64,000 bases of DNA from a phage: assembly GCA_018027755.1 (NCBI GenBank), contig GCA_018027755.1_4098.1; one strand, given 5' to 3'. A model generated the notes under the pieces. It had not been told where the DNA came from and made no database searches. It saw only the letters and a program-made list of their open reading frames with translations. This document shows positions 39,960 to 56,929 of this stretch, one piece after another; within the stretch, counting starts at the first letter, position 1, and every line of letters begins with the position of its first letter. The position numbers and the translations under genes were made by a program.

Positions 39960-41093
39960 TTAAGGTTTATTTTTATAATTAATTTCTACATAGTTACGTT
40001 GTGTTCCAGTATATCCTGGAACATTCCCTATATTTCCATTACCTGCACCAAACAGACGTTCTCCGACTGCAAAATATGTCCCATAGAAACAACCATCAAA
40101 CACAGGAACATCATTATAATTTGATATGTAATTATCCATTGAATCCATTCTAGTGTATGCAGTCAGAGTTACATTTGTACCTATACCATATGCACCATAA
40201 GGGTTAGTACCAGCAACATAATACCCAGTGGGTGTACATATTACTGGTGAATTTGCCCCTGATCTCGTGTGGATAAATCTAAATGTACCTTCAGGTACTG
40301 GTGCTTCTTTACTGAATAATGTTGTAGCTACTACTGGGTAATCAATACCATAACTATTACCACTCAACCACGTTTTACCATCACTATCTTTGAATAATGA
40401 ACAGGATTGTGTGCATCCGAACAGATTCAAATTGGTTACATTTGGAAATTTACTAATTTGTGTATATACCAGAACTGTGGTTGCGGCAGCACTACCAAGT
40501 TGTCCACGACCATTATCACCCGCACTGTACATGTACCCATCGGTCTTTAATATTATACTAGCGTTTCCTAAAATATCAAAATCAACAACATCCGTTTGTG
40601 TTAATGTAGCTATAGGATAACGAAAATTCACTGCCTCACCAGTACCAAATTGACAATTGGTGTTTACCCCACATCCATATAAGTTGCCGTTTTGCATTAA
40701 TATAAACAAACCTGTTGTCATTTTAATTTTCTTAATATTAAGAATATCTATATCTTGGAATATGTGTGTTACATTTACAAATGTGGTTGAGTTAACAGTA
40801 CTTGAACCATAATAAGAACCGTTCCCGCTACCAAAGAATTCATCGCCTTTTCTGTACATTGCACATAGACTGCCACCCCATACATCATCAACTCCAGTGT
40901 CAATTTGAATAACTGAAGTAACACTAGTTGTTGCACCAGTGCCAAGTTCACCACCTGAATTGAATCCAAAACCATACAAATCTCCACTTTCGGTGAGCAC
41001 CAAAACACTGTTATTGGTTGTGCATGAAATCTTTTTGATATTATTAGATGGTCTTTTATTTCCGTACTTAACCATTCTTGCAAAAGGTAACAT
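39960..41093 (-). CDS. RCC1-like beta-propeller repeat protein, MLPF-family paralog (377 aa)
   Basis: MLPFARMVKYGN; RCC1-type motifs YGCGVNTNCQFGTGEA and YSAGDNGRGQLGSAA. Confidence 0.8.
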   Translation of the reverse strand: MLPFARMVKYGNKRPSNNIKKISCTTNNSVLVLTESGDLYGFGFNSGGELGTGATTSVTSVIQIDTGVDDVWGGSLCAMYRKGDEFFGSGNGSYYGSSTVNSTTFVNVTHIFQDIDILNIKKIKMTTGLFILMQNGNLYGCGVNTNCQFGTGEAVNFRYPIATLTQTDVVDFDILGNASIILKTDGYMYSAGDNGRGQLGSAAATTVLVYTQISKFPNVTNLNLFGCTQSCSLFKDSDGKTWLSGNSYGIDYPVVATTLFSKEAPVPEGTFRFIHTRSGANSPVICTPTGYYVAGTNPYGAYGIGTNVTLTAYTRMDSMDNYISNYNDVPVFDGCFYGTYFAVGERLFGAGNGNIGNVPGYTGTQRNYVEINYKNKP

Positions 41094-41140
41094 GATTTCT
41101 CTCCTTTATCCATTATACTATATTTAATACAAATAAGAAA

Positions 41141-41159
41141 GCCAGTACAGAGTACTGGC
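41141..41159 (-). terminator. junction terminator hairpin
   Basis: gccagtactctgtactggc. Confidence 0.6.
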
Positions 41160-41166
41160 TTTTACA

Positions 41167-42357
41167 TTACAATTGTCTAGGTGTATCCAGAACATATCTA
41201 TTTGTTTTAGGACCACCATCATCATAAGTTCCGGTTGAATATATATTTTTCATATCAGCAGTTAGGAAAGTACGTAACGACCCTCGATATATTTTTATTT
41301 TATCATACATAGAATATGTTATTTCTGACGGCAATGGACATGCAGTAAATTTACCAATGGTAACATTAGAACCAACACCCAATGAACCAGCATAACTACT
41401 CGCATTTAAACCTGTTGCATATACACCAGTACTCGTAACTAGTATACTAGATTGTGCTGGGTATCCAGTATGGATTGAATAATAAGTACCGGGTGGTAAT
41501 GTAGCACTATTATTTCCTAAAACTCCATTAACAGTGCTAGATGTAGTTTTATTTCCCCATGCCCCATTATTAGCGTTACCACCTACTAGGAACTGACGTG
41601 CTCCTGTACTTGGATTCTCTACTAAAGCACTGACAGCACCAAATGAACAAACAGTATATTGTAATGTTTTTGTATATGTGGTACTTGGCTTATACAAAGT
41701 ATATTCATTAAATGGTGTCCATGTGGTACTAGTACTTATGCCAGATGTACTACCACCAATATATAAATTATTTTGTGTATCAAAAAACATTGCACAGTAA
41801 TTTGTTGACTGTATTTGTGCAATATCTACATCTGGTGTTACCGCTTTAACAAATGAACCATCTGATATTTGATAAGTAGTTCCTGTACCATCTGCGAATT
41901 GTCTAGCACTATTCCACCCTGTACTCCATATTGTATTATTATCCATTAAGAAAGTAAACCATGTAGTACCTGCATACATCTGTTTAATTGAAGTACTTGA
42001 ACTTTGTTTGTACAATTTTTCAATATATTGGTTATAACTTAAAAATGATGTAGTACTAGTTTCTAAACCAATATGACTACCATATCCACAATAAAAATAA
42101 TTTAAGTCCTTATCTTGAACTAACAAAGTTCCTTGTGTCATCCAGCAATCTTTGACATTTTCTCTAATTAATGTCCACGACCTTACTGCATTATTATTTC
42201 CTCTACCAAACTTCCCAAAACTATTACTGCCTCGTGCGTATAGTTGACCGTCGGTATAAAGTACAACAACCTCAGTATCAGTTGGTATTATTTTCTTAAT
42301 TTGTAGTGGTACAGGCACAATATTCCCATAATTCATCATTCTTGCAAAAGGTAACAT
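41167..42357 (-). CDS. RCC1-like beta-propeller repeat protein, MLPF-family paralog (396 aa)
   Basis: MLPFARMMNYGN; about 90% identical over the body to the copy at 45612..46802. Confidence 0.8.
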   Translation of the reverse strand: MLPFARMMNYGNIVPVPLQIKKIIPTDTEVVVLYTDGQLYARGSNSFGKFGRGNNNAVRSWTLIRENVKDCWMTQGTLLVQDKDLNYFYCGYGSHIGLETSTTSFLSYNQYIEKLYKQSSSTSIKQMYAGTTWFTFLMDNNTIWSTGWNSARQFADGTGTTYQISDGSFVKAVTPDVDIAQIQSTNYCAMFFDTQNNLYIGGSTSGISTSTTWTPFNEYTLYKPSTTYTKTLQYTVCSFGAVSALVENPSTGARQFLVGGNANNGAWGNKTTSSTVNGVLGNNSATLPPGTYYSIHTGYPAQSSILVTSTGVYATGLNASSYAGSLGVGSNVTIGKFTACPLPSEITYSMYDKIKIYRGSLRTFLTADMKNIYSTGTYDDGGPKTNRYVLDTPRQL

Positions 42358-42403
42358 AATTCCCCTCCTTATTCATTATACTATATTTAATACAAATAAG
42401 AAA

Positions 42404-42422
42404 GCCAGTATCAAGTACTGGC
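42404..42422 (-). terminator. junction terminator hairpin
   Basis: gccagtacttgatactggc. Confidence 0.6.
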
Positions 42423-42436
42423 ATAGTTTTATAGTA

Positions 42437-43546
42437 TCATTTCGGCATTGTAATTGCAGACCATGAGTTCGTGGTAATAGGACCTGGCACATACAAAAAA
42501 GAACCACAAGCATAAATTTGATTATTACCATCAAATACTATACTAAAATGTGCACATGTGTATAATGCTGATTTTTCTGGGTTGTAATTATCTAAAGTTA
42601 GTGTATTGGTGAATCTACTCAAACCACCACCAGAACCATTTCTACCAAATTCACCAGTACTATATATCTTTCCTTCGGTTGTTGCGTACATATTAACATA
42701 TGAAGTTGCACTTGATTTTGATATTTTATGTATCTTACTATCAATAGTAGTGGAGTTAAATGCAAATGGATATACTTGTGTGTTCGTTGTAATACCGTTA
42801 CCAAGTTGACCAACATACTGCCAACCTGCGTTGTATATATTGCTGGCTGAATAAGCAAGAGTACCAGTACTGTTACCACCAAATAGTTTAACACTTGTTA
42901 ACCTTCTTACTAGTGTAGTATACTGTCCGGGACTTACGCCAAGTGAACCATACCCACTGCTCCCGCAACCGAGAAGTTCATTATTTGATGTTAATATTAA
43001 TGTGTTATTCTGTGTACCCAATATATCAAGGACTGTATTAGCTCCGGTATTAACAACTGAAACAAAAGTACTCTGAGCCGTGGAATACCCACCACCGAGT
43101 GAATAGTTACCATTCATGCCTCTACCATAAACAATCGAACCACTAGCATCAACGTAGTGCATTGTATCTGCACCAATTGATATCATTTTAATATTAGATA
43201 TATGTGGAAATGAAGAAGTAACATTCAAACCACCCAACGGAATCATAGTATTTCCTGTGCCTAATTGTGTGGTAACTCCATGCATTATGAATTCTTCACC
43301 CTTGAGATAAAGAATATTGTACGCACCAGCCCATGCATCAGTAACACCTTCTGAAATTAATATCCAAGTATTTCTTGTTGCTGTATTTTCAACGTTTAAC
43401 TGCAAATACGTATTAACCCCACAACCATAAAGTGAGCCATCGCCATAGAGGACGTACAAATTATCAAGACCGCACAGTACTTTCTTTATCTTTGGAGCTT
43501 CAGGTGCAATATTTCCGTACTTAACCATTCTTGCAAAAGGTAACAT
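42437..43546 (-). CDS. RCC1-like beta-propeller repeat protein, MLPF-family paralog
   Basis: True start taken at MLPFARMVKYGN (43546) after AGGAG; only ~8 nt after the upstream gene's stop. Confidence 0.75.
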   Translation of the reverse strand: MLPFARMVKYGNIAPEAPKIKKVLCGLDNLYVLYGDGSLYGCGVNTYLQLNVENTATRNTWILISEGVTDAWAGAYNILYLKGEEFIMHGVTTQLGTGNTMIPLGGLNVTSSFPHISNIKMISIGADTMHYVDASGSIVYGRGMNGNYSLGGGYSTAQSTFVSVVNTGANTVLDILGTQNNTLILTSNNELLGCGSSGYGSLGVSPGQYTTLVRRLTSVKLFGGNSTGTLAYSASNIYNAGWQYVGQLGNGITTNTQVYPFAFNSTTIDSKIHKISKSSATSYVNMYATTEGKIYSTGEFGRNGSGGGLSRFTNTLTLDNYNPEKSALYTCAHFSIVFDGNNQIYACGSFLYVPGPITTNSWSAITMPK

Positions 43547-43554
43547 ATTCACTC

Positions 43555-44730
43555 CTATTCTGGTAAAATCATTTTCTTCATTTTAACTTGTTGTGTACCT
43601 GGACTCTGTTCCTGAAACATAGACCCGTTACCACACCAGTACACCTCATTAGTACCCACTAACGCGTATAACACACCAGAACCACCTTGTACTGAAAATG
43701 CATTAACATCTGGTGCAACATCCATATCCTCATATTGTACCTGGTGGTAATAAGATCTTTCTGATGCAGTAGTAACAGGCCAACCAAGAGGAACACCACT
43801 ACCACATGTATAAAGTTTACCATTCTGTGTCATTGCCATTATAAAATAATTCAAACTGTGATTGTTCATCGACCCAGCATCTGGTATAATACCACTAATT
43901 GCAGGAGTGGTACTAAATGGACTCATGATAATAGTAGTGTCGCCATACCCTATTCCTAAACAATAATCAGTGTTTTTTCCAGCAGTATATACATTAATCT
44001 TATTTCTATTGGATGTAAGTACTGAAGTGGTTTCAGGAGTACATGAAATACCAATAACTGTTCCAGATATATCAGTACTTACCGTAAATGTCGAAAGTTT
44101 AGAAGAACCTGACCCTAAGTTGTAACTTGCGTTATTCCCACATCTGTAGTATTGATTATTTTTAACATAATGGAAAGCATCCCCAGCCGTTGTTCCCGCA
44201 ATTATAGTAACTCCAGTAGCAATCTGAATTGGCGTTGTTTTTCTACCAGTAACACCCAATGCACCTCCTGTATTACGCCCAATCCCATATAAGTCCCCAT
44301 TACTTAACAAAATCAATAACGCACCATTTGATGCAGTAGTTTCAGTAGCAGCTATATCTACTACTGTAGTAAGTGCTGGTATTGTAGACAATAAAGATGT
44401 GATATTAGTCCATCCAGGAACTGGTGATGCAGATACACCGACATAACCCATTTGACCAGCTAAGTAAAATTCTCCGTCAGTCGTAAGTATAATTGTTGCT
44501 GCAAAGAAGCACCAAACATTAGAAACTTTATATGGACACTGTACCCACCCATTTTGCACATACGCAGTGCTATTATTTCCTAGCATATAGTGTGCACCAT
44601 TTCCACGTAGATATAAGTTACCACTATCAAATAACATACCCATATGTGATGGAGATGTACTTATCTTCATAACACCTGAAGGTGCTGGAACTCTGTTTCC
44701 GTACTTAACCATTCTTGCAAAAGGTAACAT
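43555..44730 (-). CDS. RCC1-like beta-propeller repeat protein, MLPF-family paralog
   Basis: Start at MLPFARMVKYGN (44730); the track's MNKGGN extension is the RBS read as codons. Confidence 0.75.
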   Translation of the reverse strand: MLPFARMVKYGNRVPAPSGVMKISTSPSHMGMLFDSGNLYLRGNGAHYMLGNNSTAYVQNGWVQCPYKVSNVWCFFAATIILTTDGEFYLAGQMGYVGVSASPVPGWTNITSLLSTIPALTTVVDIAATETTASNGALLILLSNGDLYGIGRNTGGALGVTGRKTTPIQIATGVTIIAGTTAGDAFHYVKNNQYYRCGNNASYNLGSGSSKLSTFTVSTDISGTVIGISCTPETTSVLTSNRNKINVYTAGKNTDYCLGIGYGDTTIIMSPFSTTPAISGIIPDAGSMNNHSLNYFIMAMTQNGKLYTCGSGVPLGWPVTTASERSYYHQVQYEDMDVAPDVNAFSVQGGSGVLYALVGTNEVYWCGNGSMFQEQSPGTQQVKMKKMILPE

Positions 44731-44775
44731 ATTTCCTCCTTTATTCATTATACTATATTTAATACAAAAAGAAAT

Positions 44776-44794
44776 GCCAGTATCAAGTACTGGC
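44776..44794 (-). terminator. junction terminator hairpin
   Basis: gccagtacttgatactggc. Confidence 0.6.
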
Positions 44795-44801
44795 CTATAT
44801 T

Positions 44802-45539
44802 TTAGACTGAATTGTTAGGATAATATCTCCCACGTCCCCATATTATTCGCACAGCACCACCACCAGCAGCCGTATAAGAAAAATTATCCCATATACTACC
44901 ACCACCACCATACATCTTACCAGCACCACCACTACCAGCACCACCATTATATGAACCATCGTATCTACCGCCAATACCATTAGCACCTTGAACAATGATA
45001 CCAGTACCACCACCCGTACCAATGAACGAGGTATTATAGAATGCACCACCACCACCGCCGCCGCCAGCACCATTTTCACCAGTGATTGCATCTCCGTTAC
45101 CACCTTTACCAGTGTAGCCACCAGCACCACCACCAATGACTGCACCACCACTTACACCAGCGTTGCCCCCATTACCACCACCATCATTAATAGCGTTAGC
45201 AGCTTTCCCACCTAGTCCACCAACCCTATATTCACCAGTGAAGCTAACACATAGTTTTTCAGTTCCACGATATAAACCGTTTTCAACTGCTGTAGTAGTG
45301 TTGGGATGTGTAAGAGAAACACTTAAGTACTCACCACTAGTAACCGGAATATTATTACGCCACGATAAGCCGCCGCCAGCACCACGTTGACCACCCGGCG
45401 AAATAACACATACTGATATTTCGGTAACGCTAGCAGGAACTGTAAATTGTGTTGTTCCTATTGTCGTGATTAATTGTTCACCATGTGGCTTATATTCAAT
45501 TTCATTCCCGTACTTAATCATTCTTCCAAAAGGTAACAT
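44802..45539 (-). CDS. glycine-rich MLPF-family protein (245 aa)
   Basis: MLPFGRMIKYGN followed by long poly-Gly runs (GGNGGNAGVSGGAVIGGGAGGYTGKGGNG...); no Gly-X-Y periodicity. Confidence 0.7.
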   Translation of the reverse strand: MLPFGRMIKYGNEIEYKPHGEQLITTIGTTQFTVPASVTEISVCVISPGGQRGAGGGLSWRNNIPVTSGEYLSVSLTHPNTTTAVENGLYRGTEKLCVSFTGEYRVGGLGGKAANAINDGGGNGGNAGVSGGAVIGGGAGGYTGKGGNGDAITGENGAGGGGGGGAFYNTSFIGTGGGTGIIVQGANGIGGRYDGSYNGGAGSGGAGKMYGGGGSIWDNFSYTAAGGGAVRIIWGRGRYYPNNSV

Positions 45540-45586
45540 AATTCCCTCCTTTATTCATTATAATATATTTAATACAAAAAAGAAAA

Positions 45587-45605
45587 GCCAGTACAAAGTA
45601 CTGGC
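45587..45605 (-). terminator. junction terminator hairpin
   Basis: gccagtactttgtactggc. Confidence 0.6.
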
Positions 45606-45611
45606 ATTATA

Positions 45612-46802
45612 TTATAACTGTCTTGGAGTATCCAGTACATATCTATTTGTACGAGGACCACCATCATCATCAGTTCCTGTTGAATATATATTTTTCATAT
45701 CAGCAGTTAGGAAAGTACGATACGAACCGCGATATATTTTAATTTTATCATACATAGAATATGTTATTTCTGACGGCAATGGACATGCAGTAAATTTACC
45801 AATGGTAACATTAGAACCAACACCCAATGTGCCAGCATAACTACTCGCATTTAAACCAGTTGCATATACACCTGCACTCGTAACTAGTATACTAGATTGT
45901 GTTGGGTATCCAGTATGAATTGAATACAAAGTACCGGGTGGTAAGGTTGTACTATTATTTCCTAAAACTCCATTAACAGTGCTAGATGTAGTTTTATTTC
46001 CCCATGCTCCATTATTAGCTAATCCACCAACTAGAAACTGACGTGCTCCTGTATTTGGATTCTCCACCAAAGCACTGACTGAACCCATTGAGCATCCAGT
46101 GTATTGTAACGTTTTTGTGTATGTGGTACTTGGCTGATATAAAGTATATTCATTATATAAAGTCCATGTAGTGCTGGAACTTATACCGGATGTACCACCA
46201 CCAATATATAAATTATTTTGTGTATCAAAAAACATTGCACAGCTATTTGTTGACATTATTTGTGCAATATCAACATCTGGTGTTACAGCTTTAACAAATG
46301 AACCATCGGTTATTTGTTGAGTTTTTCCAGTACCATCAGCGAATTGTTTAGCCCCACTCCACCCAGTACTCCATATTGTATTATTATCCATTAAGAAAGT
46401 AAACCATGTAGTACCTGCATACATCTGTTTAATTGAAGTACTTGAACTTTGTTTGTACAATTTTTCAATATATTGGTTATAACTTAAAAATGATGTAGTA
46501 CTAGTTTCTAAACCAATATAACCACCATAGCCACAATAAAAATAATTTAAGTCCTTATCTTGTACTAACAAAGTTCCTTCTGACATCCAACAATCGTTAA
46601 CGTTTTCTCTAATTAATGTCCATGTTCTTAATGCAGTGTTGTTTCCTCTCCCAAACTTCCCAAAACTATTATTGCCTCGTGCGTATAGTTGACCATCAGT
46701 ATAAAGTACAACAACATCACTATTGATTGGTATTATTTTCTTAATTTGAAGAGGCTCAGGTGTAATATTTCCATAATCAAACATTCTAACAAAAGGTAAC
46801 AT
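45612..46802 (-). CDS. RCC1-like beta-propeller repeat protein, MLPF-family paralog
   Basis: Start at MLPFVRMFDYGN (46802); near-duplicate of 41167..42357. Confidence 0.8.
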   Translation of the reverse strand: MLPFVRMFDYGNITPEPLQIKKIIPINSDVVVLYTDGQLYARGNNSFGKFGRGNNTALRTWTLIRENVNDCWMSEGTLLVQDKDLNYFYCGYGGYIGLETSTTSFLSYNQYIEKLYKQSSSTSIKQMYAGTTWFTFLMDNNTIWSTGWSGAKQFADGTGKTQQITDGSFVKAVTPDVDIAQIMSTNSCAMFFDTQNNLYIGGGTSGISSSTTWTLYNEYTLYQPSTTYTKTLQYTGCSMGSVSALVENPNTGARQFLVGGLANNGAWGNKTTSSTVNGVLGNNSTTLPPGTLYSIHTGYPTQSSILVTSAGVYATGLNASSYAGTLGVGSNVTIGKFTACPLPSEITYSMYDKIKIYRGSYRTFLTADMKNIYSTGTDDDGGPRTNRYVLDTPRQL

Positions 46803-46848
46803 ATTTCCTCCTTTATTCATTATACTATATTTAATACAAAAAAGAAAA

Positions 46849-46867
46849 GCCAGTATCAAGTACTGGC
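46849..46867 (-). terminator. junction terminator hairpin
   Basis: gccagtacttgatactggc. Confidence 0.6.
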
Positions 46868-46873
46868 CTATAT

Positions 46874-48043
46874 TTAAACTGGCGAATCTAATATAAATTC
46901 TAAACTACTAATGCCACCATATGTGACATCTGTTCCCGTGCTATATACAAAATTACCATCAGTTATATAAGTTCGGTTATAACTACCTGCCATCTGTGAC
47001 TTACTATAATCAAACCCATCAGGTACGATTGCTTTGGTATATACTAATGCATTAGTAGATGTACCAATACCTAACATACCAGCTTGTGTAGATTGATTGT
47101 AGCCGCAACAATATATACCATCTGTTGTAGCAATAACTTGGTTATAATATGAAGTATTGTTAGCAATGCTTACTACATCACCAGGTGGCATTAGTGATGC
47201 TGTTTGTACCTCAAATGCTCTATAATCTTTGAGAGAACCATCTTTCCCATCTGCTTGTGCACCAAATATTCTTGAACCACCATTTGCGATGATAGTTTTA
47301 CCAGTGGGATCAGTGCCTATTGCCATTGCCATTGAAGTACCATTATTCACATAGTACTTTATATTAATTGTATTACTTAAGCTGGTAGGAGCACCATAAT
47401 ATATATTATATAACTTACTTCCTGAACTTGTAACTGCATTGACTCTTCCTGTATAAAATAACCATCCTTGGTTTGTAACATAACCGTGCATTAAATTACT
47501 TGCAAACAATTTAACAGGTAATTGATTTGCTGCGGTAGGAACAGTACTTTTGACGAATCTACCAGAAACATGGTTAATTGTTGTCCCATCACCCAACTGA
47601 CCATCCGACCCTACTCCAGTACTCCATATTGTTTGGTCTGATAGTAACACACTTGTAGTCTGATAACTAACGGCTATATCTAATATTGGTAATGTTAATG
47701 TATTGAATATAGGCATAGCAGATGTCCATATTGATACTCCTGACCCTTTCATACCAACAGTTGTTGAACTTCCACTGTACCATATTTCATTATTGCTTTT
47801 CTTAACAACTATCGACGTGGCTCCCATCCAAAAATCTTCAACACCAGAAGTACTAAAAGTCCATGTAGTAACAGTATTTTTGTGACCTAAACCCAAAATA
47901 CCATATGCATTATCACCACGCACATATAAATCACCACTGTTTGTTAAAACAGCAACATTATAGTTGTTAGCAAGTATTTTTTTAATATTTGGTTTAGCAG
48001 GTGCAATATTCCCGTAATCAAACAATCTCACAAAAGGTAACAT
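46874..48043 (-). CDS. RCC1-like beta-propeller repeat protein, MLPF-family paralog
   Basis: Start at MLPFVRLFDYGN (48043); motifs YVRGDNAYGILGLG and WSTGVGSDGQLGDG. Confidence 0.8.
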   Translation of the reverse strand: MLPFVRLFDYGNIAPAKPNIKKILANNYNVAVLTNSGDLYVRGDNAYGILGLGHKNTVTTWTFSTSGVEDFWMGATSIVVKKSNNEIWYSGSSTTVGMKGSGVSIWTSAMPIFNTLTLPILDIAVSYQTTSVLLSDQTIWSTGVGSDGQLGDGTTINHVSGRFVKSTVPTAANQLPVKLFASNLMHGYVTNQGWLFYTGRVNAVTSSGSKLYNIYYGAPTSLSNTINIKYYVNNGTSMAMAIGTDPTGKTIIANGGSRIFGAQADGKDGSLKDYRAFEVQTASLMPPGDVVSIANNTSYYNQVIATTDGIYCCGYNQSTQAGMLGIGTSTNALVYTKAIVPDGFDYSKSQMAGSYNRTYITDGNFVYSTGTDVTYGGISSLEFILDSPV

Positions 48044-48088
48044 AATTCCTCCTTTATTCATTATACTATATTTACCCCAAAAAGAAAT

Positions 48089-48108
48089 GCCAGTACTTGA
48101 GTACTGGC
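48089..48108 (-). terminator. junction terminator hairpin
   Basis: gccagtactcaagtactggc. Confidence 0.6.
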
Positions 48109-48114
48109 ATTATG

Positions 48115-49224
48115 TTATTTTGGTAAATCAATTTTAGTAAAGACTGCAACATCTGCACTTGCACCTGGAATGGCGTAATACGATCCAGTACTATATACAT
48201 TCCCGTCTTTGGTTAATAATGATGTTAATCCGTCACTAAAAGCAACATCACTAATCTCACTAACTTCTACAGGTAATTGTAAATTAGCAGCACTATAGAT
48301 AGCACCCGTTTGAGAATTGTTTAATCCCAAACCACGGTTTCCCCCAATACCTTTCTGATATGCACTAGTTAATATAATTTGCGTAGCCGTGCTTGTTGCC
48401 TCTGAATTTGTCATAAACAAAGGTGAATTATTAGGTAAAGTACTTACAGGAACTGCTTTGAATGTAGTTGAATCTGAACTAAGAAAGTTTGGAGTTGTAC
48501 CACATGTGAAATATGATGTACCATTATAGTAATTGAGTGTATGTCCACCAATAGCTGCATCTATTACACCAGAACTACGCAGTCCCCAAATGTTAACTTG
48601 TGTTCTGTTCCCTGTGCCATGTAATCCACGGTCATTCCACCCTGAACTATATAACTTATTATCTATGCTAATATACATACTATCATTAGGAGTAGACATA
48701 ACTTTACGCACATTAGAAGCACATAGTGTTAATGTATATATTGATGAAGAACCAATCCCCAATACACCACGGTATCCATTAGCCCCAGCACCATAGAGTA
48801 CTGAACTTGAACTGAGTACAAATATTACACCACCATTGCATACAATATTAGCAATTTGATTCACAGGAATTGTATTTGTAAACCACTCCGTTCTATCAAC
48901 TAATGTAGTACTGTAAGAAGTTGTTGATGATGATGTGAACCAAAATGTTTCACCTGATGTCCATATCGTATTGTCATTTTTAATAATAACAAGTGTTCGT
49001 CCTCCAGTGAAAAAATTAGAAACATCTGCACTTACTAATGTCCAAGAAGATACCGTGTTTTTATTACCATTTCCAGATTCACCACCTTGATTTCTGCCTA
49101 TGTAATACAATTCATGTGAATCAGTCAATACGAATTGACCTTGAGTAGAAGCACCAACTTTAATTATATTTTTAGGACCAGAGGTAATATTCCCATAATC
49201 AAATAGTCTTACAAAAGGTAACAT
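48115..49224 (-). CDS. RCC1-like beta-propeller repeat protein, MLPF-family paralog
   Basis: Start at MLPFVRLFDYGN (49224) after AGGAGG; ~8 nt after the upstream gene's stop. Confidence 0.75.
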   Translation of the reverse strand: MLPFVRLFDYGNITSGPKNIIKVGASTQGQFVLTDSHELYYIGRNQGGESGNGNKNTVSSWTLVSADVSNFFTGGRTLVIIKNDNTIWTSGETFWFTSSSTTSYSTTLVDRTEWFTNTIPVNQIANIVCNGGVIFVLSSSSVLYGAGANGYRGVLGIGSSSIYTLTLCASNVRKVMSTPNDSMYISIDNKLYSSGWNDRGLHGTGNRTQVNIWGLRSSGVIDAAIGGHTLNYYNGTSYFTCGTTPNFLSSDSTTFKAVPVSTLPNNSPLFMTNSEATSTATQIILTSAYQKGIGGNRGLGLNNSQTGAIYSAANLQLPVEVSEISDVAFSDGLTSLLTKDGNVYSTGSYYAIPGASADVAVFTKIDLPK

Positions 49225-49232
49225 AATTCCTC

Positions 49233-50435
49233 CTATTGTTGCCATAACTGCGTTGGCATTAATGTTAGTGTAGTAATACTATAAGTGCCATCAGGCAATC
49301 TACCACCATTACCATTCCAGCCACCACATGCATATAATTTATAATCTTTAGTAATTATTATGGTTCTGCTCCAATCTTTAGATGCCATAAGAACATTGTC
49401 ATAACCACCACTTATTGCATTAAGATTAAAAATATTCCAAGTCCTAACTAATGTATTAGTTCCATTACCTTCTTGACCGTATCCGTTAGCACCACTACTT
49501 CTAACATATGGTGCGTATTGTGCCATAGGTGCACCAATTGATGCATTTCCCATATTACTTGGACAAATAAAAGTACTGTACTTACTTACATCAACCGTGA
49601 CCGATGTGTTCCTAATTGGTGTTAGCTGATTTACCGATGTAGTCGTACCATTACCAGCTTGTCCAGTACTGTTAGCCCCGCTATAATATACAGGCCCACC
49701 AGTAGTAAACCACCAAGTAACATCGTATGTAGTACTAATATGTTCGACATCACTCATCACATATTTGTTCAAATATATCATAGAACTAGCACCACAACCA
49801 CTTTCACCGAAGTTATCCTTACCACAAAACCATGCCTTTTTATTTGATTTAATATAGTGCGTTCCTTGTAATGAACATGCCATATGTGTAACTTCACCCA
49901 TATTAGTCATAACTGTTAGTGTAGGTATGGAATTTTGATTACCAGACCCACATTCACCATTGGTATTTCTTCCACACGCAATTACTCTACCATCGGTTAA
50001 TAATATTCTAGTACTTTCACCTATATATACACTCTTGATCATATTAGCCATAACACCAATTTTATTAAATGAAGCAGTAACATCAGTCCATGTTCTCAAA
50101 TAACCATTAACAGGTGTTGCATCTCCATAATCAGAAAATGCACCAACCGACCCAGTGTAGTATATTTTATTATCCAAATCAATCATCAATGAACCTTGAA
50201 CACCAAGCCAAAAGGCTGCACATCGCGTTGCAAGTACTGTAAATGACGCAACTGCTGCTGAATTCCCAAGACCAAATTGATAAAAGTTATTACTACCATA
50301 ACCATATAAAGTATTAGTTGGGCTATGTAGATACATACAGTTTGTATAATGTTGTTGTAAAACATCTGAGAACTCTACAGGTTCTGGACCTGGTGCAATA
50401 TTTGCGTACTTAACCATTCGTGCAAAAGGTAACAT
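49233..50435 (-). CDS. RCC1-like beta-propeller repeat protein, MLPF-family paralog (400 aa)
   Basis: MLPFARMVKYAN; motifs YGYGSNNFYQFGLGN and YSGANSTGQAGNGTT. Confidence 0.8.
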   Translation of the reverse strand: MLPFARMVKYANIAPGPEPVEFSDVLQQHYTNCMYLHSPTNTLYGYGSNNFYQFGLGNSAAVASFTVLATRCAAFWLGVQGSLMIDLDNKIYYTGSVGAFSDYGDATPVNGYLRTWTDVTASFNKIGVMANMIKSVYIGESTRILLTDGRVIACGRNTNGECGSGNQNSIPTLTVMTNMGEVTHMACSLQGTHYIKSNKKAWFCGKDNFGESGCGASSMIYLNKYVMSDVEHISTTYDVTWWFTTGGPVYYSGANSTGQAGNGTTTSVNQLTPIRNTSVTVDVSKYSTFICPSNMGNASIGAPMAQYAPYVRSSGANGYGQEGNGTNTLVRTWNIFNLNAISGGYDNVLMASKDWSRTIIITKDYKLYACGGWNGNGGRLPDGTYSITTLTLMPTQLWQQ

Positions 50436-50481
50436 ATTTCCCTCCTTTATTCATTATACTATATTTAATACAAAAAGAAAT

Positions 50482-50500
50482 GCCAGTATCAAGTACTGGC
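50482..50500 (-). terminator. junction terminator hairpin
   Basis: gccagtacttgatactggc. Confidence 0.6.
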
Positions 50501-50507
50501 ATAGTAT

Positions 50508-51635
50508 TCAAAAAGGTAAATCAATTTGCTTAGTAATAATAGTATCTAACGGTATTGAACACAATGAGAAATTCTTTCCACCCGTATTTTTAGGATTATA
50601 TCCATTCATCCATACATTATTACCTTCGTAAAATGTATTCCAGTATAAAGACCCACTATATCGTGTATTCGAATTGAACGATGTAAAATTGAATTCTTGA
50701 AATGCTGTAAAATATGGAAGGGAACTTGAACTACTTCCCGTAAATGGGGTATGCCCAGTTGCTATTAGTTTGTTTGTATCTGCATTAATTAAAAATACAA
50801 CACTAGTCGAATAGTCCAACGAATCAGGATGATATATATTACTCATATCACCTATAGTAAAACCAACATCAAAAACTTTACTATGTGCACCACTACCAGC
50901 AAAAGTAGTTCCAGTTGCATATATTTTATTATCAGATGTTATCATTACAAAACCAACACCAGAAACAAAACTGCATTTTATATCATAAGATATATCATCA
51001 AACAACGGAACAAATGTGGTTGCATCACCCGATGTTGCTTTAACTTGAAAGCTGTTATTTGAACCTGAACCATATACAGTTCCATCGTTTTTAATCTTAA
51101 ACAATGTATCGCCAAGGTAACCGCCAAATATATTATCCACATTAGTGTCAAGTACAGTCCACGCTGAAACATAATTTTTATGTCCTAAACCTAATGCACC
51201 ACTTCGATTCCATCCTCTTCCATAAAGTGTTCCGTCTTTCATTAATATAAATGCTGTATAACCACATAACATTTTTTTAATTTGGGTAACATCTATACCA
51301 GTGAAATACACAGCCCAGTCAGTATATCCTTGTTGGAAAGTATTAGAATTCGTGAATGCATATGTTGAACCTGAACCATATATTTTATCACCTTTAATAA
51401 CAACGGAAAACGATCCTAACCATAAGTCATCAACTTCAGTTGTGATTTGTTGAACTGCTCCTAACGATACAAACTTTGTACTTAAACCCGCATTATAGTT
51501 TGAATCTTCACCGTGTGCATATACAGTGCCATCTTGCATTAGAAACATTTCAAGAGTGTAACTAACAACACTTTTCTTTATATTATTAACTTCGATTATA
51601 TTCCCATAATCAAACATTCTAACAAAAGGTAACAT
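50508..51635 (-). CDS. MLPF-family paralog (375 aa), Gly/Ser/Thr/Asn/Tyr-rich
   Basis: MLPFVRMFDYGN; weaker RCC1-like motifs. Confidence 0.7.
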   Translation of the reverse strand: MLPFVRMFDYGNIIEVNNIKKSVVSYTLEMFLMQDGTVYAHGEDSNYNAGLSTKFVSLGAVQQITTEVDDLWLGSFSVVIKGDKIYGSGSTYAFTNSNTFQQGYTDWAVYFTGIDVTQIKKMLCGYTAFILMKDGTLYGRGWNRSGALGLGHKNYVSAWTVLDTNVDNIFGGYLGDTLFKIKNDGTVYGSGSNNSFQVKATSGDATTFVPLFDDISYDIKCSFVSGVGFVMITSDNKIYATGTTFAGSGAHSKVFDVGFTIGDMSNIYHPDSLDYSTSVVFLINADTNKLIATGHTPFTGSSSSSLPYFTAFQEFNFTSFNSNTRYSGSLYWNTFYEGNNVWMNGYNPKNTGGKNFSLCSIPLDTIITKQIDLPF

Positions 51636-51707
51636 AATTCCCTCCTTTATTCATTATACTTTATTTAATACAAATAAGAATTCCTGTATCGAGTACTGGC
51701 ATTCAAT

Positions 51708-52856
51708 TTATTGTAAAAAGGACATATCTACTTCTGTATAACTAAGAATGTTTTGACCAGCAATTCCACCCATTACTACTATTGCATACCCACAATAATA
51801 TAATTTCCCAGTGTCCGTAAGTATAAGTGAACCAGAAGGTGTTCTTACCAAATTACACGAACTATTAAAAGAAGTATACGAAGGAGTATAGGAGTACTGA
51901 TTAATATTATTACCAACACCTAATTGACCACCCCTATTCGAACCAGATGCATAAAGTACTTCATCTGCTTTGACAATATGTGATGCCATGTTAGCAACAC
52001 ATGCATATACACCATATACCCCTGTACTCAATAATGTAGGAGTCTTGTATTGAATATCAGTACTAGTAGATGTTCCACCTGTGCCAAATTCATTACCATA
52101 TTGTGCTCCGTACTGCTTCCCACATGCGTACAAATTATTATCCGATTTGATAAAAAATGTACTCTGATAACTTACATCAAAATCTATAACATCCGAAGAA
52201 ATCATCGTTACCCCAGTAATCGAAGTTTGATTACCAGTACCCAACTGGTAGTAATAGTTAAAACCACAACCCCATAAAGTATTATCTTCTCGCAAATAAA
52301 TGTTACCAACAGCCTTTTTAACAGATGTTATAGTACTGACCTTCTTGAATGTATTAAATGAATCAATGTTAGTACCATCTCCAAAGGAGGATATGTTCGA
52401 TGCGTTATTAGCACCACAACAATATAATGTCCCATCCTTCAGTACTAAATTTACCTTCATATCATTAAAACTGCTCATGTACTCAATATCAGATACACTA
52501 ATACCACCTGATGTTATCCACGTAGTACAGTCCGTCCATAACGTCTTCCTATCAGTTACCCCAGTAAATGCCTTCGTGTTACCAGTGATAAACACTTTAC
52601 CAGTACCCTTTTCTTCATACAATTGACAATCACTACTGTTATCTTCCAATAAAACCCTCTGTACATTCTCTGCACAAAGAATAAATTTACTCGAAGCTAC
52701 TCCTGTACCAGTACCCCAATTCGTCGCAGAAGATGCATACAACTTGTGTGTTAGTGTATCATGCAAATACATAGAACCACTAGAATATATTTTAAAACGC
52801 CCTTCTTTCTCAGGTATAATATTCCCATAATCAAACATTCTAACAAAAGGTAACAT
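51708..52856 (-). CDS. MLPF-family paralog, Gly/Ser/Thr/Asn/Tyr-rich
   Basis: Start at MLPFVRMFDYGN (52856); first gene of the minus-strand array. Confidence 0.7.
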   Translation of the reverse strand: MLPFVRMFDYGNIIPEKEGRFKIYSSGSMYLHDTLTHKLYASSATNWGTGTGVASSKFILCAENVQRVLLEDNSSDCQLYEEKGTGKVFITGNTKAFTGVTDRKTLWTDCTTWITSGGISVSDIEYMSSFNDMKVNLVLKDGTLYCCGANNASNISSFGDGTNIDSFNTFKKVSTITSVKKAVGNIYLREDNTLWGCGFNYYYQLGTGNQTSITGVTMISSDVIDFDVSYQSTFFIKSDNNLYACGKQYGAQYGNEFGTGGTSTSTDIQYKTPTLLSTGVYGVYACVANMASHIVKADEVLYASGSNRGGQLGVGNNINQYSYTPSYTSFNSSCNLVRTPSGSLILTDTGKLYYCGYAIVVMGGIAGQNILSYTEVDMSFLQ

Positions 52857-52904
52857 ATTTCCTCCTTTATTCATTATATCATATTTACCCCATAAACAAA
52901 ACCC

Positions 52905-52958: not shown

Positions 52959-53186
52959 ATGACAAATACTCTTAAGTACTACCTCAATACTCTAAATGAA
53001 CTAGAGTACGCGAAGTTTCTCGCGGATAGTTCGTGGCTAATTGAGCTAAAAACACATAACAGTACTGGATGTAACCTAATGCTGAACAATGCACTTGATA
53101 CCCTTGTAGTGAGTATTTTACACAGCAACATCTGCGGGGATAGAAACAAACAATTATCAAAAATCTTAGTACTGCTATCTATATGA
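52959..53186 (+). CDS. small-ORF array member
   Basis: First member; has AAGGAG SD; C-terminal hydrophobic tail. Confidence 0.55.
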   Translation: MTNTLKYYLNTLNELEYAKFLADSSWLIELKTHNSTGCNLMLNNALDTLVVSILHSNICGDRNKQLSKILVLLSI

Positions 53187-53386
53187 ATATCGAACAGTAC
53201 TACATCGATGCACTACCAACAAAAGGTCTACGTGAAAGCCTACTGCATACACAAACTAATTTCAAACACCTCAAACGTAGCCCTAAACTCCTGAACTCGT
53301 ACAGGAATAATAACATAAGAAATGCTTTACAAGGGGTAGAATGTATGCAATACTATTACATCCTTACCCTATTAATCGAGTACTAA
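53183..53386 (+). CDS. small-ORF array member
   Basis: ATGA overlap with previous gene. Confidence 0.55.
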   Translation: MNIEQYYIDALPTKGLRESLLHTQTNFKHLKRSPKLLNSYRNNNIRNALQGVECMQYYYILTLLIEY

Positions 53387-53387
53387 T

Positions 53388-53597
53388 ATGAATACTGAAC
53401 ATAAAGAATTCTACACCAAATACCTTAGCAACGAAGAACAATTGTTTCTAAGGAGTGTATCACCTGTAAGTACCAATACTCAATTCGGTAGAGATTGCTT
53501 TAATAATTGTATACGTAGTACTCTAGAAGCAATCGAATGCAATAACAAAAATATTATGTACTCAGGTTTAATAGGACTAATATATTTCTATGAATAA
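53388..53597 (+). CDS. small-ORF array member
   Basis: MNTEHKEFY...LIGLIYFYE; near-paralog of 56340. Confidence 0.6.
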   Translation: MNTEHKEFYTKYLSNEEQLFLRSVSPVSTNTQFGRDCFNNCIRSTLEAIECNNKNIMYSGLIGLIYFYE

Positions 53598-53784
53598 TCA
53601 TAAAGATTTCTATTGTAGTAAACTACCCAAACAAGAACAGCTATCATTCTCTTTAGCACCACCTATGAGAAAGGATAATCTGTATTATAATTACGATTTC
53701 AGGATGGTGACACGTTATGCAATAGAACATCAGTTCCCTGAAACTAAGTACCGCTCTATCCTGAACCTCATCTTTAAGTTCTAA
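53590..53784 (+). CDS. small-ORF array member
   Basis: MNNHKDFY...LNLIFKF. Confidence 0.55.
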   Translation: MNNHKDFYCSKLPKQEQLSFSLAPPMRKDNLYYNYDFRMVTRYAIEHQFPETKYRSILNLIFKF

Positions 53785-53836
53785 AAGGTACACCAGGGAC
53801 CGAGTACTTTAATATAGTAAGGCTAATTACATTATA

Positions 53837-54022
53837 ATGAATCATATAAGCTACTACTACCAACAACTATCCGACAGAGACAAGTACAGTCACAACTCCC
53901 ATGTGTGGTACTACAAACGCGGCAGTATAAGAGACAAACAACATTACTTCTGTATTTCTATTAAAGAAGCACTGACAACTAAGTACACGTACCGAGCAGT
54001 ACTTAAACTAATCTCTATTTGA
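53837..54022 (+). CDS. small-ORF array member (..VLKLISI subfamily)
   Basis: Conserved C-terminus shared with 54031, 54225 and 54413. Confidence 0.55.
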   Translation: MNHISYYYQQLSDRDKYSHNSHVWYYKRGSIRDKQHYFCISIKEALTTKYTYRAVLKLISI

Positions 54023-54030
54023 GGTAATAT

Positions 54031-54216
54031 ATGAATACATTTGAGTACTATACCAATAAACTATCTATGCCTGAAAGATCTCATCTCTATGTGTGGAGAA
54101 ATGCGTATAAAAGCGGCAATAAACTTATACAAAGAAATTCCCTTACAGTGTGTACAAATTTAATTAAAGCAGAGTACCGCACATATATTGAAGTACTGAA
54201 GCTGATAGCAATCTAA
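54031..54216 (+). CDS. small-ORF array member (..VLKLIAI subfamily)
   Basis: ORF in track. Confidence 0.55.
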   Translation: MNTFEYYTNKLSMPERSHLYVWRNAYKSGNKLIQRNSLTVCTNLIKAEYRTYIEVLKLIAI

Positions 54217-54224
54217 GGTACTCT

Positions 54225-54404
54225 ATGCAAGAATTCTATATCTATAACCTCCAGCACAAAGATAGATACAACTATAATAAATTCCAAAGGTACTACACAG
54301 TCGGGAACAAAAGAGATAAAAAACGATACTTTCTATCATGTACAGTAGAAGCACAAAACGAAAAGTACACGTACAGAGAAGTACTGAAACTCATCTCTAT
54401 GTAA
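54225..54404 (+). CDS. small-ORF array member (59 aa)
   Basis: Hand-translated MQEFYIYNLQ...REVLKLISM; below the track cutoff. Confidence 0.5.
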   Translation: MQEFYIYNLQHKDRYNYNKFQRYYTVGNKRDKKRYFLSCTVEAQNEKYTYREVLKLISM

Positions 54405-54412
54405 GGAATAAT

Positions 54413-54592
54413 ATGCAAGAATACTATATAGAACACATAAGCATTAAAGACCGTTTCATGTACGACACCTTCGTGAAGTACTACAACCTGGCAACTAACA
54501 GTACTAAAAATATTAATCTCAATAGCTGCATTCATCACGCACTAACAAAAGATAATCCCTTCAGGGAAATCCTCGCACTAGCATCTGTATAA
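54413..54592 (+). CDS. small-ORF array member
   Basis: Track ORF 54338..54592 trimmed to the family-type start MQEYYIEH. Confidence 0.5.
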   Translation: MQEYYIEHISIKDRFMYDTFVKYYNLATNSTKNINLNSCIHHALTKDNPFREILALASV

Positions 54593-54602
54593 AGGAAACC
54601 AA

Positions 54603-55262
54603 ATGAAACTTAATGCACACAGCAAACAATACCTTAAGCACTTTAAGTACCTCAACAGTATTCAAGCAGAATCTTTTACACCAGCATATACGTATCACCC
54701 TAATGTACTAAAGAAACGAAATAAAAAGAAAAAATCCAGAAATGTTCTCGTATCTAAGAACCTCAAATCGTACTTGAAGAAAAATAATATAGCTCTTGCT
54801 TTTATTAATATCTATAATACTGATTTAAAAGTATTGAGTACTAATACCAGCACAAAAGCACTAAAGAATGCATCTATCTATATACACATGGATAATATCC
54901 CGTGCACTATAATTCTATCTTTCGGGAATGTATACTTCTTCGGGAATTGTAATAGCACCCATGATATCAGTACTGCACAATTCCAAATCGGAGATATGTA
55001 CTGCATGGGTTCAGAAAAAATACACGATAACATGCACTTCTTCCAAAAGCAACGTACTAACGAAACTGATACAGTACTGCAATTCCTCAAAGAATTACAA
55101 AACAAAGAATTATCCGAGGAAGAAGAATTCATGTACAGTACTGTAATCGATAATCCAGAACTCTATAAAAACGCGTACAAACTAACAAAACATGTACAGG
55201 AACTTATCAGTACTGATAAGAAATTTCATCACCTCATTACGTATATTTCAAACTATGTATAA
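54603..55262 (+). CDS. hypothetical protein (219 aa) embedded in the small-ORF array
   Basis: Larger ORF unrelated to the array family; SD AAAGGAAACCAA upstream. Confidence 0.55.
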   Translation: MKLNAHSKQYLKHFKYLNSIQAESFTPAYTYHPNVLKKRNKKKKSRNVLVSKNLKSYLKKNNIALAFINIYNTDLKVLSTNTSTKALKNASIYIHMDNIPCTIILSFGNVYFFGNCNSTHDISTAQFQIGDMYCMGSEKIHDNMHFFQKQRTNETDTVLQFLKELQNKELSEEEEFMYSTVIDNPELYKNAYKLTKHVQELISTDKKFHHLITYISNYV

Positions 55263-55283
55263 AGAATACTAAAATTATCTATA

Positions 55284-55382
55284 ATGAATTAATGAAAGAA
55301 TGTATTAAAGGTGCTATTAACCCTAAAGATACGTATGACTTGTACTATGCAGTACTAACCCTTGTTTTCACGAAATAACACA
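55284..55382 (+). pseudogene. array-family C-terminal remnant (32 aa)
   Basis: Short ORF ...DLYYAVLTLVFTK resembles only the family C-terminus. Confidence 0.3.
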
Positions 55383-55386
55383 TAAT

Positions 55387-55578
55387 ATGAATAACCACAA
55401 AGAATACTACATAGAGAAACTCCCAATGTATCTCCAACACCTTGTACCAACAGAACCATTGGGTATAGAAAAAAACTACGAAAAAGACTACTTCATTCAG
55501 TGCACTAAATCCTCGATATATATTGAAGACTATAATCGAGTACTGTATCACATCCTTTTACTAATATATAGGTACTAA
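55387..55578 (+). CDS. small-ORF array member
   Basis: MNNHKEYY...LLLIYRY. Confidence 0.6.
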   Translation: MNNHKEYYIEKLPMYLQHLVPTEPLGIEKNYEKDYFIQCTKSSIYIEDYNRVLYHILLLIYRY

Positions 55579-55579
55579 T

Positions 55580-55762
55580 ATGCACAAAGAATACTACACA
55601 CAATTTCTCCCCAGCATTTTTGAACACTACGCCAGATACAAAGTCCCTATGGATAACGATTTGGCAGTACTGGGATTCAATAACTGCATAGAACGAAGTA
55701 TAGAAAATAGTAGTAGTTATGACCAGCTATATAACACTATCCTACTTATATTCAGGTACTAA
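55580..55762 (+). CDS. small-ORF array member
   Basis: MHKEYY...LLIFRY; start 2 nt after previous stop. Confidence 0.6.
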   Translation: MHKEYYTQFLPSIFEHYARYKVPMDNDLAVLGFNNCIERSIENSSSYDQLYNTILLIFRY

Positions 55763-55763
55763 T

Positions 55764-55952: not shown

Positions 55953-55961
55953 AAGAACAAT

Positions 55962-56147: not shown

Positions 56148-56148
56148 T

Positions 56149-56334: not shown

Positions 56335-56339
56335 CTAAT

Positions 56340-56730: not shown

Positions 56731-56731
56731 T

Positions 56732-56914: not shown

Positions 56915-56929
56915 TTAATAGAGAATACT

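Follow-up and report, generated by a model that had tools for sequence, protein, structure and literature searches.

The 64-kb window analysed here (the whole 64,000-nt stretch of contig GCA_018027755.1_4098.1, assembly GCA_018027755.1) originates from an Asteriusvirus, a 121Q/PBECO4-like member of the Rak2-like jumbo coliphages, and contains an array of genes that start with the same short peptide, two of which, denoted A and B, are closely similar. Megablast matches to the region were confined to Escherichia and Salmonella phages of the 121Q/PBECO4 kind, and those with a genus in their lineage all belonged to Asteriusvirus. The top match was only ~90% identical over 81% of the query, indicating that the exact arrangement found in the window is absent from the deposited phages.

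The MLPF array and the A/B gene pair

Between ~37.8 and 52.9 kb, 14 open reading frames (ORFs) on the minus strand begin with MLPF, including 12 intact genes and two short remnants. Eleven of the intact genes encode proteins of 369-449 aa with RCC1-like or unassigned bodies, and RCC1-repeat matches to Pfam were obtained for all scanned members of this size range except the 449-aa one, for which there were none. With the 245-aa glycine-rich member, for which a Pfam match of its own was not found, the array bodies span ~245-450 aa. The array size is highly variable, from 3 to 14 members in the nine arrays that were read gene by gene. The common denominator is a 12-residue N-terminal 'handle' with the consensus M-L-P-F-x-R-[MLI]-x-x-Y-G-N, in which M1, L2, P3, F4, R6, Y10 and N12 are invariant in the aligned members with propeller bodies.

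Most of the array genes also share the DNA in front of them. A cassette of ~70 nt precedes ten of the 12 intact genes as well as both remnants, and reads, in order, a hairpin (GCCAGTAnnnnnTACTGGC), a T-run, a conserved box (TTAAATATAGTATAATGAATAAAGGAGG) and a spacer of ~5 nt, followed by the ATG, the 36 nt coding for the handle and, finally, the variable body. The box is present 11 times in the window, always within the array and on the minus strand, with 0 occurrences expected, and the hairpin nine times plus variants, likewise in the array only; the combination of hairpin and T-run was counted 9-11 times. Terminator-like sites numbered 23, compared to 7.4 ± 3.2 in shuffled sequences. By contrast, a sigma-70 consensus scan revealed no enrichment (81 sites versus 79.9 expected), and none among the 60 strongest of these 81 sites hits the conserved box, which is devoid of the canonical sigma-70 -35/-10 architecture. 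Nearly every array gene is headed by such a stretch of ~110 nt of near-identical DNA, repeated ~12 times, with slight sequence differences among the cassettes. In several array members, the ribosome-binding site (RBS) box ATGAATAAAGGAGG shares the reading frame of the true start codon (e.g., 46803-46820 and 44731-44748), so that ORF callers add MNKGG[NI] or a longer extension to the protein and the start codons differ between the deposited annotations.

A preliminary description of this DNA had singled out A and B as a ~90% identical pair over ~390 aa, with the copies ~4.4 kb apart and different N-terminal subtypes, and had proposed recent duplication accompanied by recombination or gene conversion at the conserved 5' junction. 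As an observation, this is essentially right. Both genes are minus-strand ORFs of 396 codons with the boundaries given there (Table 1), and their starts are separated by 4445 nt. They align without gaps over 1191 nt (396 codons and the stop) with 118 mismatches (90.1% nucleotide identity), 70 of which are at third codon positions, and their products differ at 44 of the 396 residues (88.9% amino acid identity). The bodies, which had been called identical, are not, given that 41 of the 44 replacements are located outside the handle. The remaining pairs of array paralogs are just ~20-30% identical at the protein level, so that the likeness of A and B is far beyond chance. The handles are indeed of different subtypes, MLPFARMMNYGN in A and MLPFVRMFDYGN in B, and these subtypes represent genuine classes in a set of 98 full-length array genes drawn from nine genomes, to which all handle-class and codon counts below refer.

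The 5' end is the most divergent part of the pair: the first 54 nt contain 13 mismatches (24%), versus 105 in the other 1137 nt (9.2%; Fisher p = 0.0015, uncorrected), and no other 54-nt window attains this number. The two 5' haplotypes differ up to approximately codon 18 (ARMMNYGNIVPVP versus VRMFDYGNITPEP). The nucleotide alignment that had been recommended for locating a breakpoint thus places the densest mismatches where they were anticipated, but divergence between A and B is patchy over the entire gene rather than confined to one side of a junction.

Two probable alleles of one array member in a single genome

To place the pair among its relatives, A and B were searched separately against 50,697 phage records. 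Each of the 34 Asteriusvirus records yielded one full-length A/B-type match, at the same locus for both queries, and the nine arrays read gene by gene contained one copy apiece. Scans of IMG/VR with the A protein and with the handle DNA pattern retrieved just 121Q and one stray match, adding no diversity, and a word-indexed protein search with A returned six near-identical clusters only. The closest relatives of A are the alleles of ph0011 (96.6% nucleotide identity), fEgEco12 (95.9%) and phAPEC6 (95.6%), along with those of WPEC5 and Turkey5, whereas B is 98.3% identical to the allele of JNE01. Unlike recent in-genome duplicates, therefore, A and B are not mutual closest relatives, their own identity of 90.1% being well below either of these values; nor is the duplicated state common to close relatives, as the near-identical genome described below has A only. 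In a neighbour-joining tree of 22 alleles with 300 bootstraps, A and B were sisters in 0 of 300 replicates, B grouped with JNE01 in all 300, and A fell inside the ph0011/fEgEco12/phAPEC6/WPEC5/Turkey5 clade in 96%.

The position within the array tells the same story. Array genes are designated here by their first window coordinate. In the window, B lies between the 46874 gene and the glycine-rich gene, and this is the slot of the single copy in phAPEC6, Sharanji, fEgEco12, WPEC5 and 121Q. In phAPEC6, fEgEco12 and WPEC5, the allele found in the slot of B, just upstream of the glycine-rich gene, belongs to the clade of A, and phAPEC6 also has the 46874-type upstream neighbour there. Clade membership is therefore independent of the slot, which identifies the A and B clades as alleles of one locus.

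Evidence on how the two alleles came to reside in one genome is provided by the junctions. A is located between the 42437-type and 39960-type genes, which directly follow one another in fEgEco12, BF17 and Turkey3, with ~97% identity to the window. At the left junction, the window tracks these three phages up to the hairpin, beyond which it agrees with the DNA upstream of the A-type gene of phAPEC6; at the right junction, the 3' tails of A and of the A-type allele of ph0011 are identical as far as the following hairpin. These switches at hairpins imply that the insertion of A comprised an entire cassette. Four further public contigs encode exactly the A protein, and the gene is nucleotide-identical in three contigs denoted L025, L027 and L028. 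L025 (GCA_052240675.1, 93 kb) is particularly informative, being 99.5% identical to the window over positions 45620-33166 and 99.1% over 48047-46782. It carries A in the same slot but lacks B, so that its glycine-rich gene comes immediately after the 46874-type gene. The difference between the two at B amounts to exactly one cassette, with the crossover within the shared sequence TGGCTTTTCTTTTTTGTATTAAATATA. The preliminary suggestion that the direct repeat formed by the two copies is a deletion hotspot thus receives only indirect backing from a one-cassette indel between near-identical genomes, but the event ran from cassette to cassette through the flanking cassettes and did not involve a crossover between A and B. 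In the window, JNE01-like sequence (96.5-99.2% amino acid identity) makes up the 49233, 48115 and B genes, and L025-like sequence (99.1-99.5% nucleotide identity) the 46874 gene and everything from the glycine-rich gene onward, a mosaic consistent with recombination between two lineages of these kinds. In the scenario suggested by these comparisons, A would be the resident allele of an L025-like backbone, with B, of JNE01 type, in the canonical slot; B would have been either gained by such a genome or lost from L025.

Some exchange appears to have followed the encounter. The longest perfectly matching run between A and B is 154 nt (gene nt 284-437), whereas in 20,000 permutations the longest runs averaged 50 nt and never exceeded 122. 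Within this run, none of the 20 other alleles has the A/B base at nt 342 or 396, and just 2 of 20 have it at nt 350; at nt 347, B carries the base of the A clade, unlike JNE01; indeed, JNE01 differs from B at all four positions, and A of L025, which has no B partner, already has the patch states. The run accordingly combines the hallmarks of intragenomic gene conversion, namely, an identity tract with states common to the two copies, in which one copy departs from its closest relative. Conversion from A to B, covering at least 55 and at most 154 nt and occurring after the two had become co-resident, would be the simplest reading. Hence, gene conversion, which the preliminary description had invoked at the 5' junction, is found between A and B in the interior of the genes instead.

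Taken together, these comparisons suggest that A and B probably are two allelic versions of one array member, united by homologous recombination at the level of cassettes, as opposed to products of duplication in place. A recent duplication within the genome, followed by divergence and conversion of one 5' end from an array neighbour, would account for A and B being far more alike than other array pairs, for the first 54 nt being their most divergent stretch, and for the identity of nt 1-33 of B to the 50508 and 51708 genes, bar one synonymous GGA/GGG difference. We nevertheless regard it as very unlikely, because both genes have much closer relatives in other phages and never group as sisters, alleles of the A clade occupy the slot of B, and L025 has A alone; furthermore, the ~10% divergence is spread gene-wide with an excess at third positions, and both 5' haplotypes are found on the same body in single-copy phages, which makes conversion within the genome unneeded. 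A much older duplication, in the Asteriusvirus ancestor, with reciprocal loss of A-type and B-type paralogs elsewhere, could be reconciled with the well-separated allele clades and with the strong variation in array content, but it appears highly improbable and, judged from the allele comparisons, would be unparsimonious: the clade is not tied to the slot, none of the nine arrays read has kept both copies, and the alleles are patchwork mosaics of each other, as expected for a single recombining locus.

A different kind of concern is that the sequence mixes L025-like and JNE01-like strains, with the assembly switching at cassettes and placing B in a backbone that contained A only, the interior patch being an artefact of consensus building or bubble popping. 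Consistent with such a chimera, the array alternates between JNE01-like and L025-like segments that switch at cassettes, the exact B protein is on no other record, and the contig L026 stops 30 nt upstream of the glycine-rich gene, exactly at the start point of B. Against it, similar mosaics with switches at cassettes or handles occur in independently sequenced isolates, which makes mosaicism the normal biology of the locus; the cassettes are mutually non-identical and hence weaker assembly traps than perfect repeats; and the presence of the A-state patch in both copies requires that the k-mers of B were dropped, which is unlikely at equal coverage. A chimera is, on balance, improbable. Several points nonetheless weigh against our preferred interpretation of A and B as co-resident alleles. 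The exact B protein, with either start codon, was not found in look-ups and had no match in complete E. coli genomes, and exact scans of metagenome and genome collections for the 3' tail of B did not find it either, so that the two-copy state rests on one assembly. Extra partial matches were inspected in nine of the 34 Asteriusvirus records, and a diverged second copy is conceivable in the other 25. The indel at B can be read both ways, as gain in the window lineage or loss in L025. Finally, the true donor of B is not among the sampled phages, so that some of the conversion patch may have been in place before B arrived.

Exchange at cassettes and handles

The difference between the 5' ends of A and B is an instance of a pattern that extends over the whole family. 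At residues 8-9 of the handle, 33 array genes have FD, ~45 have VK, ~7 have MN and a few have other combinations. The class varies by genome, and FD is missing from Sharanji, ph0011, phAPEC6 and 121Q. The same A/B body is combined with ARMMNYGN in phAPEC6, JP4, UB, PBECO4, SD-15, 121Q, Sharanji, E9.1 and slurp01, with VRMFDYGN or VRLFDYGN in JNE01, fEgEco12, WPEC5, CMSTMSU, Turkey5, BF17, EcMJ, EC22.5-2 and A4, with GRIVKYGN in ph0011 and with ARMVKYGN in UE-S1. The clade of A alone contains three 5' haplotypes, although A differs from the other members by no more than ~5%, and the 5' ends of the two window genes are identical to those of particular phages (nt 1-86 of A to phAPEC6; nt 1-248 of B to JNE01).

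Across the array, more than one handle class is found in 10 of 19 ortholog groups. In 94 ortholog pairs whose bodies diverge by no more than 10%, the divergence was 0.7% at nt 1-13, 11.4-11.8% at nt 14-60 and 3.4-4.2% in the remainder of the gene. Individual comparisons between the window and L025 illustrate how this excess arises. In the 46874 gene, the six mismatches in 1170 nt all map to nt 14-47 (VRLFD versus ARMFK); the DNA upstream is unrelated, and the 1123 nt downstream of the breakpoint are identical. Similarly, 13 of the 20 mismatches in the 43555 gene are at nt 30-69. Recombination at the conserved 5' junction, as a process, is thus well founded, and these alignments show it to be a real and general property of the locus. 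The L025 counterpart of the 46874 gene (L025 3578-4747; window 46874-48043) has the hybrid handle MLPFARMFKYGN (A-RMF-K), between the VK and FD classes, which suggests that crossovers can occur inside the 36-nt handle sequence itself. Conversion of handles by neighbouring genes was considered and dropped, since adjacent pairs share a class in 40 of 89 cases, compared to 37 ± 3.9 in permutations (p = 0.25).

The handle is constrained at two levels. Coding nt 1-13 are identical among all array members of the window, and the codon choice is all but fixed: all 98 genes use TTA for Leu2 (frequency in the bodies, 0.46) and CCT for Pro3 (0.32), and 95 of the 98 use AGA for Arg6 (0.44). Such frozen synonymous sites point to homogenisation or constraint at the DNA level, over and above that on the protein. 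Conversely, gp001 of GAP32, a single-copy gene in the genus Mimasvirus, begins with MLPFSRIIQYGN encoded by different codons (CCA, AGG), which indicates that the peptide is conserved at the protein level across genera.

The array is thus built from autonomous units (predicted terminator, promoter and RBS, followed by the handle) that supply portable homology. As the comparisons show, recombination within this homology inserts, deletes or replaces whole cassettes and also exchanges 5' ends, from the cassette to approximately codon 16-18, between bodies. The closest known parallel is the PeSL (promoter-early stem-loop), a composite terminator/promoter motif that mediates modular shuffling in T4-type phages (Arbiol et al. 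2010, PMC2839356; Comeau et al. 2014, PMC4122927). Like PeSLs, the cassettes are short, repeated intergenic elements that combine a stem-loop with a promoter motif, serve as points of homologous exchange between otherwise unrelated genes and are located at the boundaries of indels and replacements between close phages, here those of the B indel (relative to L025) and of the A insertion. Unlike in PeSLs, an early sigma-70-type promoter was not found, the box being without the -35/-10 architecture; the homology enters the coding sequence for ~16-18 codons and thereby swaps protein N-termini too; the flanked genes all belong to one virion-protein family; and the host phage is a Rak2-like jumbo phage, not T4-type. 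No account of the cassette, the handle or handle shuffling was found in the literature searched. What the array displays is a previously unreported form of cassette-mediated modular exchange whose mechanism is of a familiar type.

Table 1. Coordinates of the array, the A/B pair and associated features in the window
Feature	Coordinates	Strand	Remarks
MLPF-handle cassette array, whole	37838..52874	-	12 intact genes and 2 decayed cassettes at the distal end
Copy A, 396 aa, RCC1-like seven-bladed propeller, handle MLPFARMMNYGN	41167..42357	-	Putative resident allele, at a non-canonical slot
Handle of A, codons 1-12	42322..42357	-	Differing 5' haplotype continues to ~codon 18 (window 42304)
Interior tract of A, gene nt 284-437	41921..42074	-	100% identical to B; candidate conversion donor
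Cassette downstream of A	41094..41166	-	Hairpin 41141-41159, box 41100-41127; right boundary of the A insertion
Cassette upstream of A	42358..42436	-	Left edge of the A insertion; comprises the 3' tail of the 42437 gene, a hairpin (42404-42422), a T-run and the promoter/RBS box (42363-42390)
Glycine-rich array member, 245 aa, between A and B	44802..45539	-	Handle MLPFGRMIKYGN on an unrelated body that folds like a tail fibre
Cassette downstream of B, in front of the glycine-rich gene	45540..45611	-	Hairpin 45587-45605, box 45545-45572; 3' side matched by the single L025 cassette
Copy B, 396-aa allele of the gene of A, handle MLPFVRMFDYGN	45612..46802	-	Canonical slot, between the 46874-type and glycine-rich genes
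Handle of B, codons 1-12	46767..46802	-	FD-type 5' haplotype continues to ~codon 18
Interior tract of B, gene nt 284-437	46366..46519	-	A-lineage states at nt 342, 347, 350 and 396; candidate conversion recipient
Cassette upstream of B	46803..46873	-	Hairpin 46849-46867, box 46807-46834; 5' side matched by the single L025 cassette

Two pairs of array genes, 49233-50435/48115-49245 and 43555-44748/42437-43552 (all on the minus strand), abut or overlap without an intergenic cassette, and each apparently moves as one unit of two genes; in JNE01 and Turkey5, too, the 49233 and 48115 genes are neighbours. At the distal end of the array, 38103-38464 (minus strand) and the ORF at 37838-38173 contain truncated MLPF-start ORFs of 36 aa and 52 aa, each of which retains its own hairpin and box, and resemble decayed cassettes. 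A variant start, MLPFRRIITSSK, is kept at the array end in Sharanji and phAPEC6, the counterpart in 121Q being MLPFGRIITSSK. Head-to-head with the MLPF array lies a second array of paralogs on the plus strand (52959-57121), with ~20 tandem ORFs of 59-77 aa that belong to one family, start with M[NH]KE[FY]Y and end in L[IL][FY]RY, interrupted by an ORF of 219 aa (54603-55262); runs of hypothetical proteins of ~60 aa also flank the MLPF array in 121Q, WPEC5 and fEgEco12. Within the first 37 kb of the window, the minus strand has just one more long ORF (7671-8825), which lacks the MLPF handle and matches PHROG 10468, 'virion structural protein' (E 3e-183).

Fold, virion association and the possible role of the handle

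The Pfam family PF13540 matched both A (31.4 bits) and B (23.6 bits) above the cut-off of 22, whereas the match to PF25390 (60 bits) was below its cut-off of 150. The AlphaFold2 model of A is a seven-bladed propeller with a predicted template modelling score (pTM) of 0.83, for which the top Foldseek matches in the PDB were UVR8 (E 1e-17), RPGR, HERC2 and RCC1 (1e-12). A thus combines the repeat signature of RCC1-like domains with a predicted seven-bladed propeller fold, as in PF25390, PF00415 and PF13540. In 121Q, PBECO4 and phAPEC6, the multi-copy RCC1-like genes are already known from the literature and are annotated as 'regulator of chromosome condensation / DNA condensation protein'. Given that the identity to RCC1 and UVR8 is ~15% and that a role as a Ran guanine-nucleotide exchange factor or in chromatin is unsupported in a phage, the 'chromosome condensation' name is an annotation carry-over.

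The handle is predicted to be separate from the propeller. In the model of A, residues 1-12 have a predicted local distance difference test (pLDDT) score below 50 and no secondary structure, and the first strand begins at residue 20. In the model of the glycine-rich member (pLDDT 91.7), residues 1-10 are likewise below 50. Fold comparison showed the latter protein to resemble a tail fibre or tail-tip protein; these matches came from fold comparison alone, a sequence-profile search of the PDB with the glycine-rich family having produced none. A role of the handle as a 'velcro' strand that closes the propeller was considered and rejected, because the model gives it no structure and places the first strand at residue 20, and because the same handle is found on a non-propeller fold. 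Relatives of the glycine-rich member (PF21722-like) in other large phages (proteins P0009-P0074) begin with MLE[LM]L or MIELL and not with MLPF, indicating that the handle is an add-on specific to the phage group of the window. The MLE[LM]L/MIELL motif may be another lineage-specific N-terminal address. On one of the contigs in question (L032, 150 kb), the glycine-rich relative (6001-6693) is ~1 kb upstream of the terminase, portal, protease and major capsid genes, and the head genes match the Pfam families of phiTE.

Array proteins of related phages, or homologs of them, have been detected in purified virions by mass spectrometry, including gp003, 005, 006, 007, 009 and 010 of phAPEC6 (PMC7247149), gp001 of GAP32 (PMC5259590) and JP4_581 and JP4_577 (PMC12648861, supplement). 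Judging from the structural models, the handle is a free N-terminal peptide; it would probably dock interchangeable heads, i.e., propellers and the fibre-like glycine-rich domain, into the virion, with the external tail or fibre apparatus as the most likely site. Two observations temper this view: the peptide counts in phAPEC6 were low, at 1-4 for each protein (PMC7247149), and phage CBB has tail whiskers yet no RCC1 homolog, so that the array proteins are probably not the 'hairs' of phAPEC6. The more specific proposition that the handle is a portable virion-incorporation tag for host-binding heads, with the VK/MN and FD classes addressing different docking sites and one head, present here as two alleles on two handle classes, being displayed at two places of the virion, is unlikely to hold; if true, cassette and handle together would be an assembly address as well as a recombination address.

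Conserved N-termini on exchangeable bodies are known from two other groups of virion proteins, and the array fully possesses the defining features of neither. The internal proteins IPI, IPII and IPIII of T4 have a conserved capsid-targeting leader of ~10 residues on diverse bodies, are present in virions and are encoded in a hyperplastic locus; a prohead-protease site, (L/I)xE, at the end of the leader allows it to be cleaved off. The array resembles this system in its short conserved leader on unrelated bodies, its virion presence and a locus that varies between relatives, and the handle might accordingly be a T4-like capsid-targeting sequence, with the array proteins packed in the head and ejected into the host. 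The low abundance in virions would agree with this, as would the inner body of phAPEC6 and the suggestion of a DNA condensation or inner-body role in the phAPEC6 paper (PMC7247149). However, the handle has no Glu within its 12 residues, no (L/I)xE-type motif and no conserved Glu in the residues that follow, one member has a non-propeller fold similar to that of tail fibre or tail-tip proteins, the bodies are ~245-450 aa, and an internal location is not indicated. We therefore regard packaging in the head as the main, but unlikely, alternative to docking on the outside of the virion.

Modular receptor-binding proteins, such as those of multi-depolymerase Klebsiella phages and the tailspikes of CBA120, join a conserved N-terminal anchor to an exchangeable distal domain. 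The array proteins are similar in that the N-terminus is conserved, the distal parts are hypervariable and recombine at the junction (as manifest in the threefold excess at nt 14-60 and the breakpoint at nt 47 of the 46874 gene), and several versions are present per virion. To our knowledge, however, the receptor-binding anchors are folded domains of ~100 or more residues, whereas the part shared by the array proteins is a 12-residue peptide predicted to be disordered, and most of the heads are RCC1-like propellers rather than beta-helix spikes.

The A/B pair illustrates that two phage genes with 90% identity need not signify a duplication, but can be the alleles of two lineages joined at repeated regulatory cassettes. 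With the array, moreover, the PeSL concept is carried over from T4-type to Rak2-like jumbo phages and beyond intergenic DNA, into the initial ~16-18 codons of the adjacent genes. If the handle indeed is a docking or packaging tag, it would be a very short, transferable address by which proteins could be loaded onto or into jumbo-phage particles, and would offer a clue to the role of the misnamed 'chromosome condensation' proteins.

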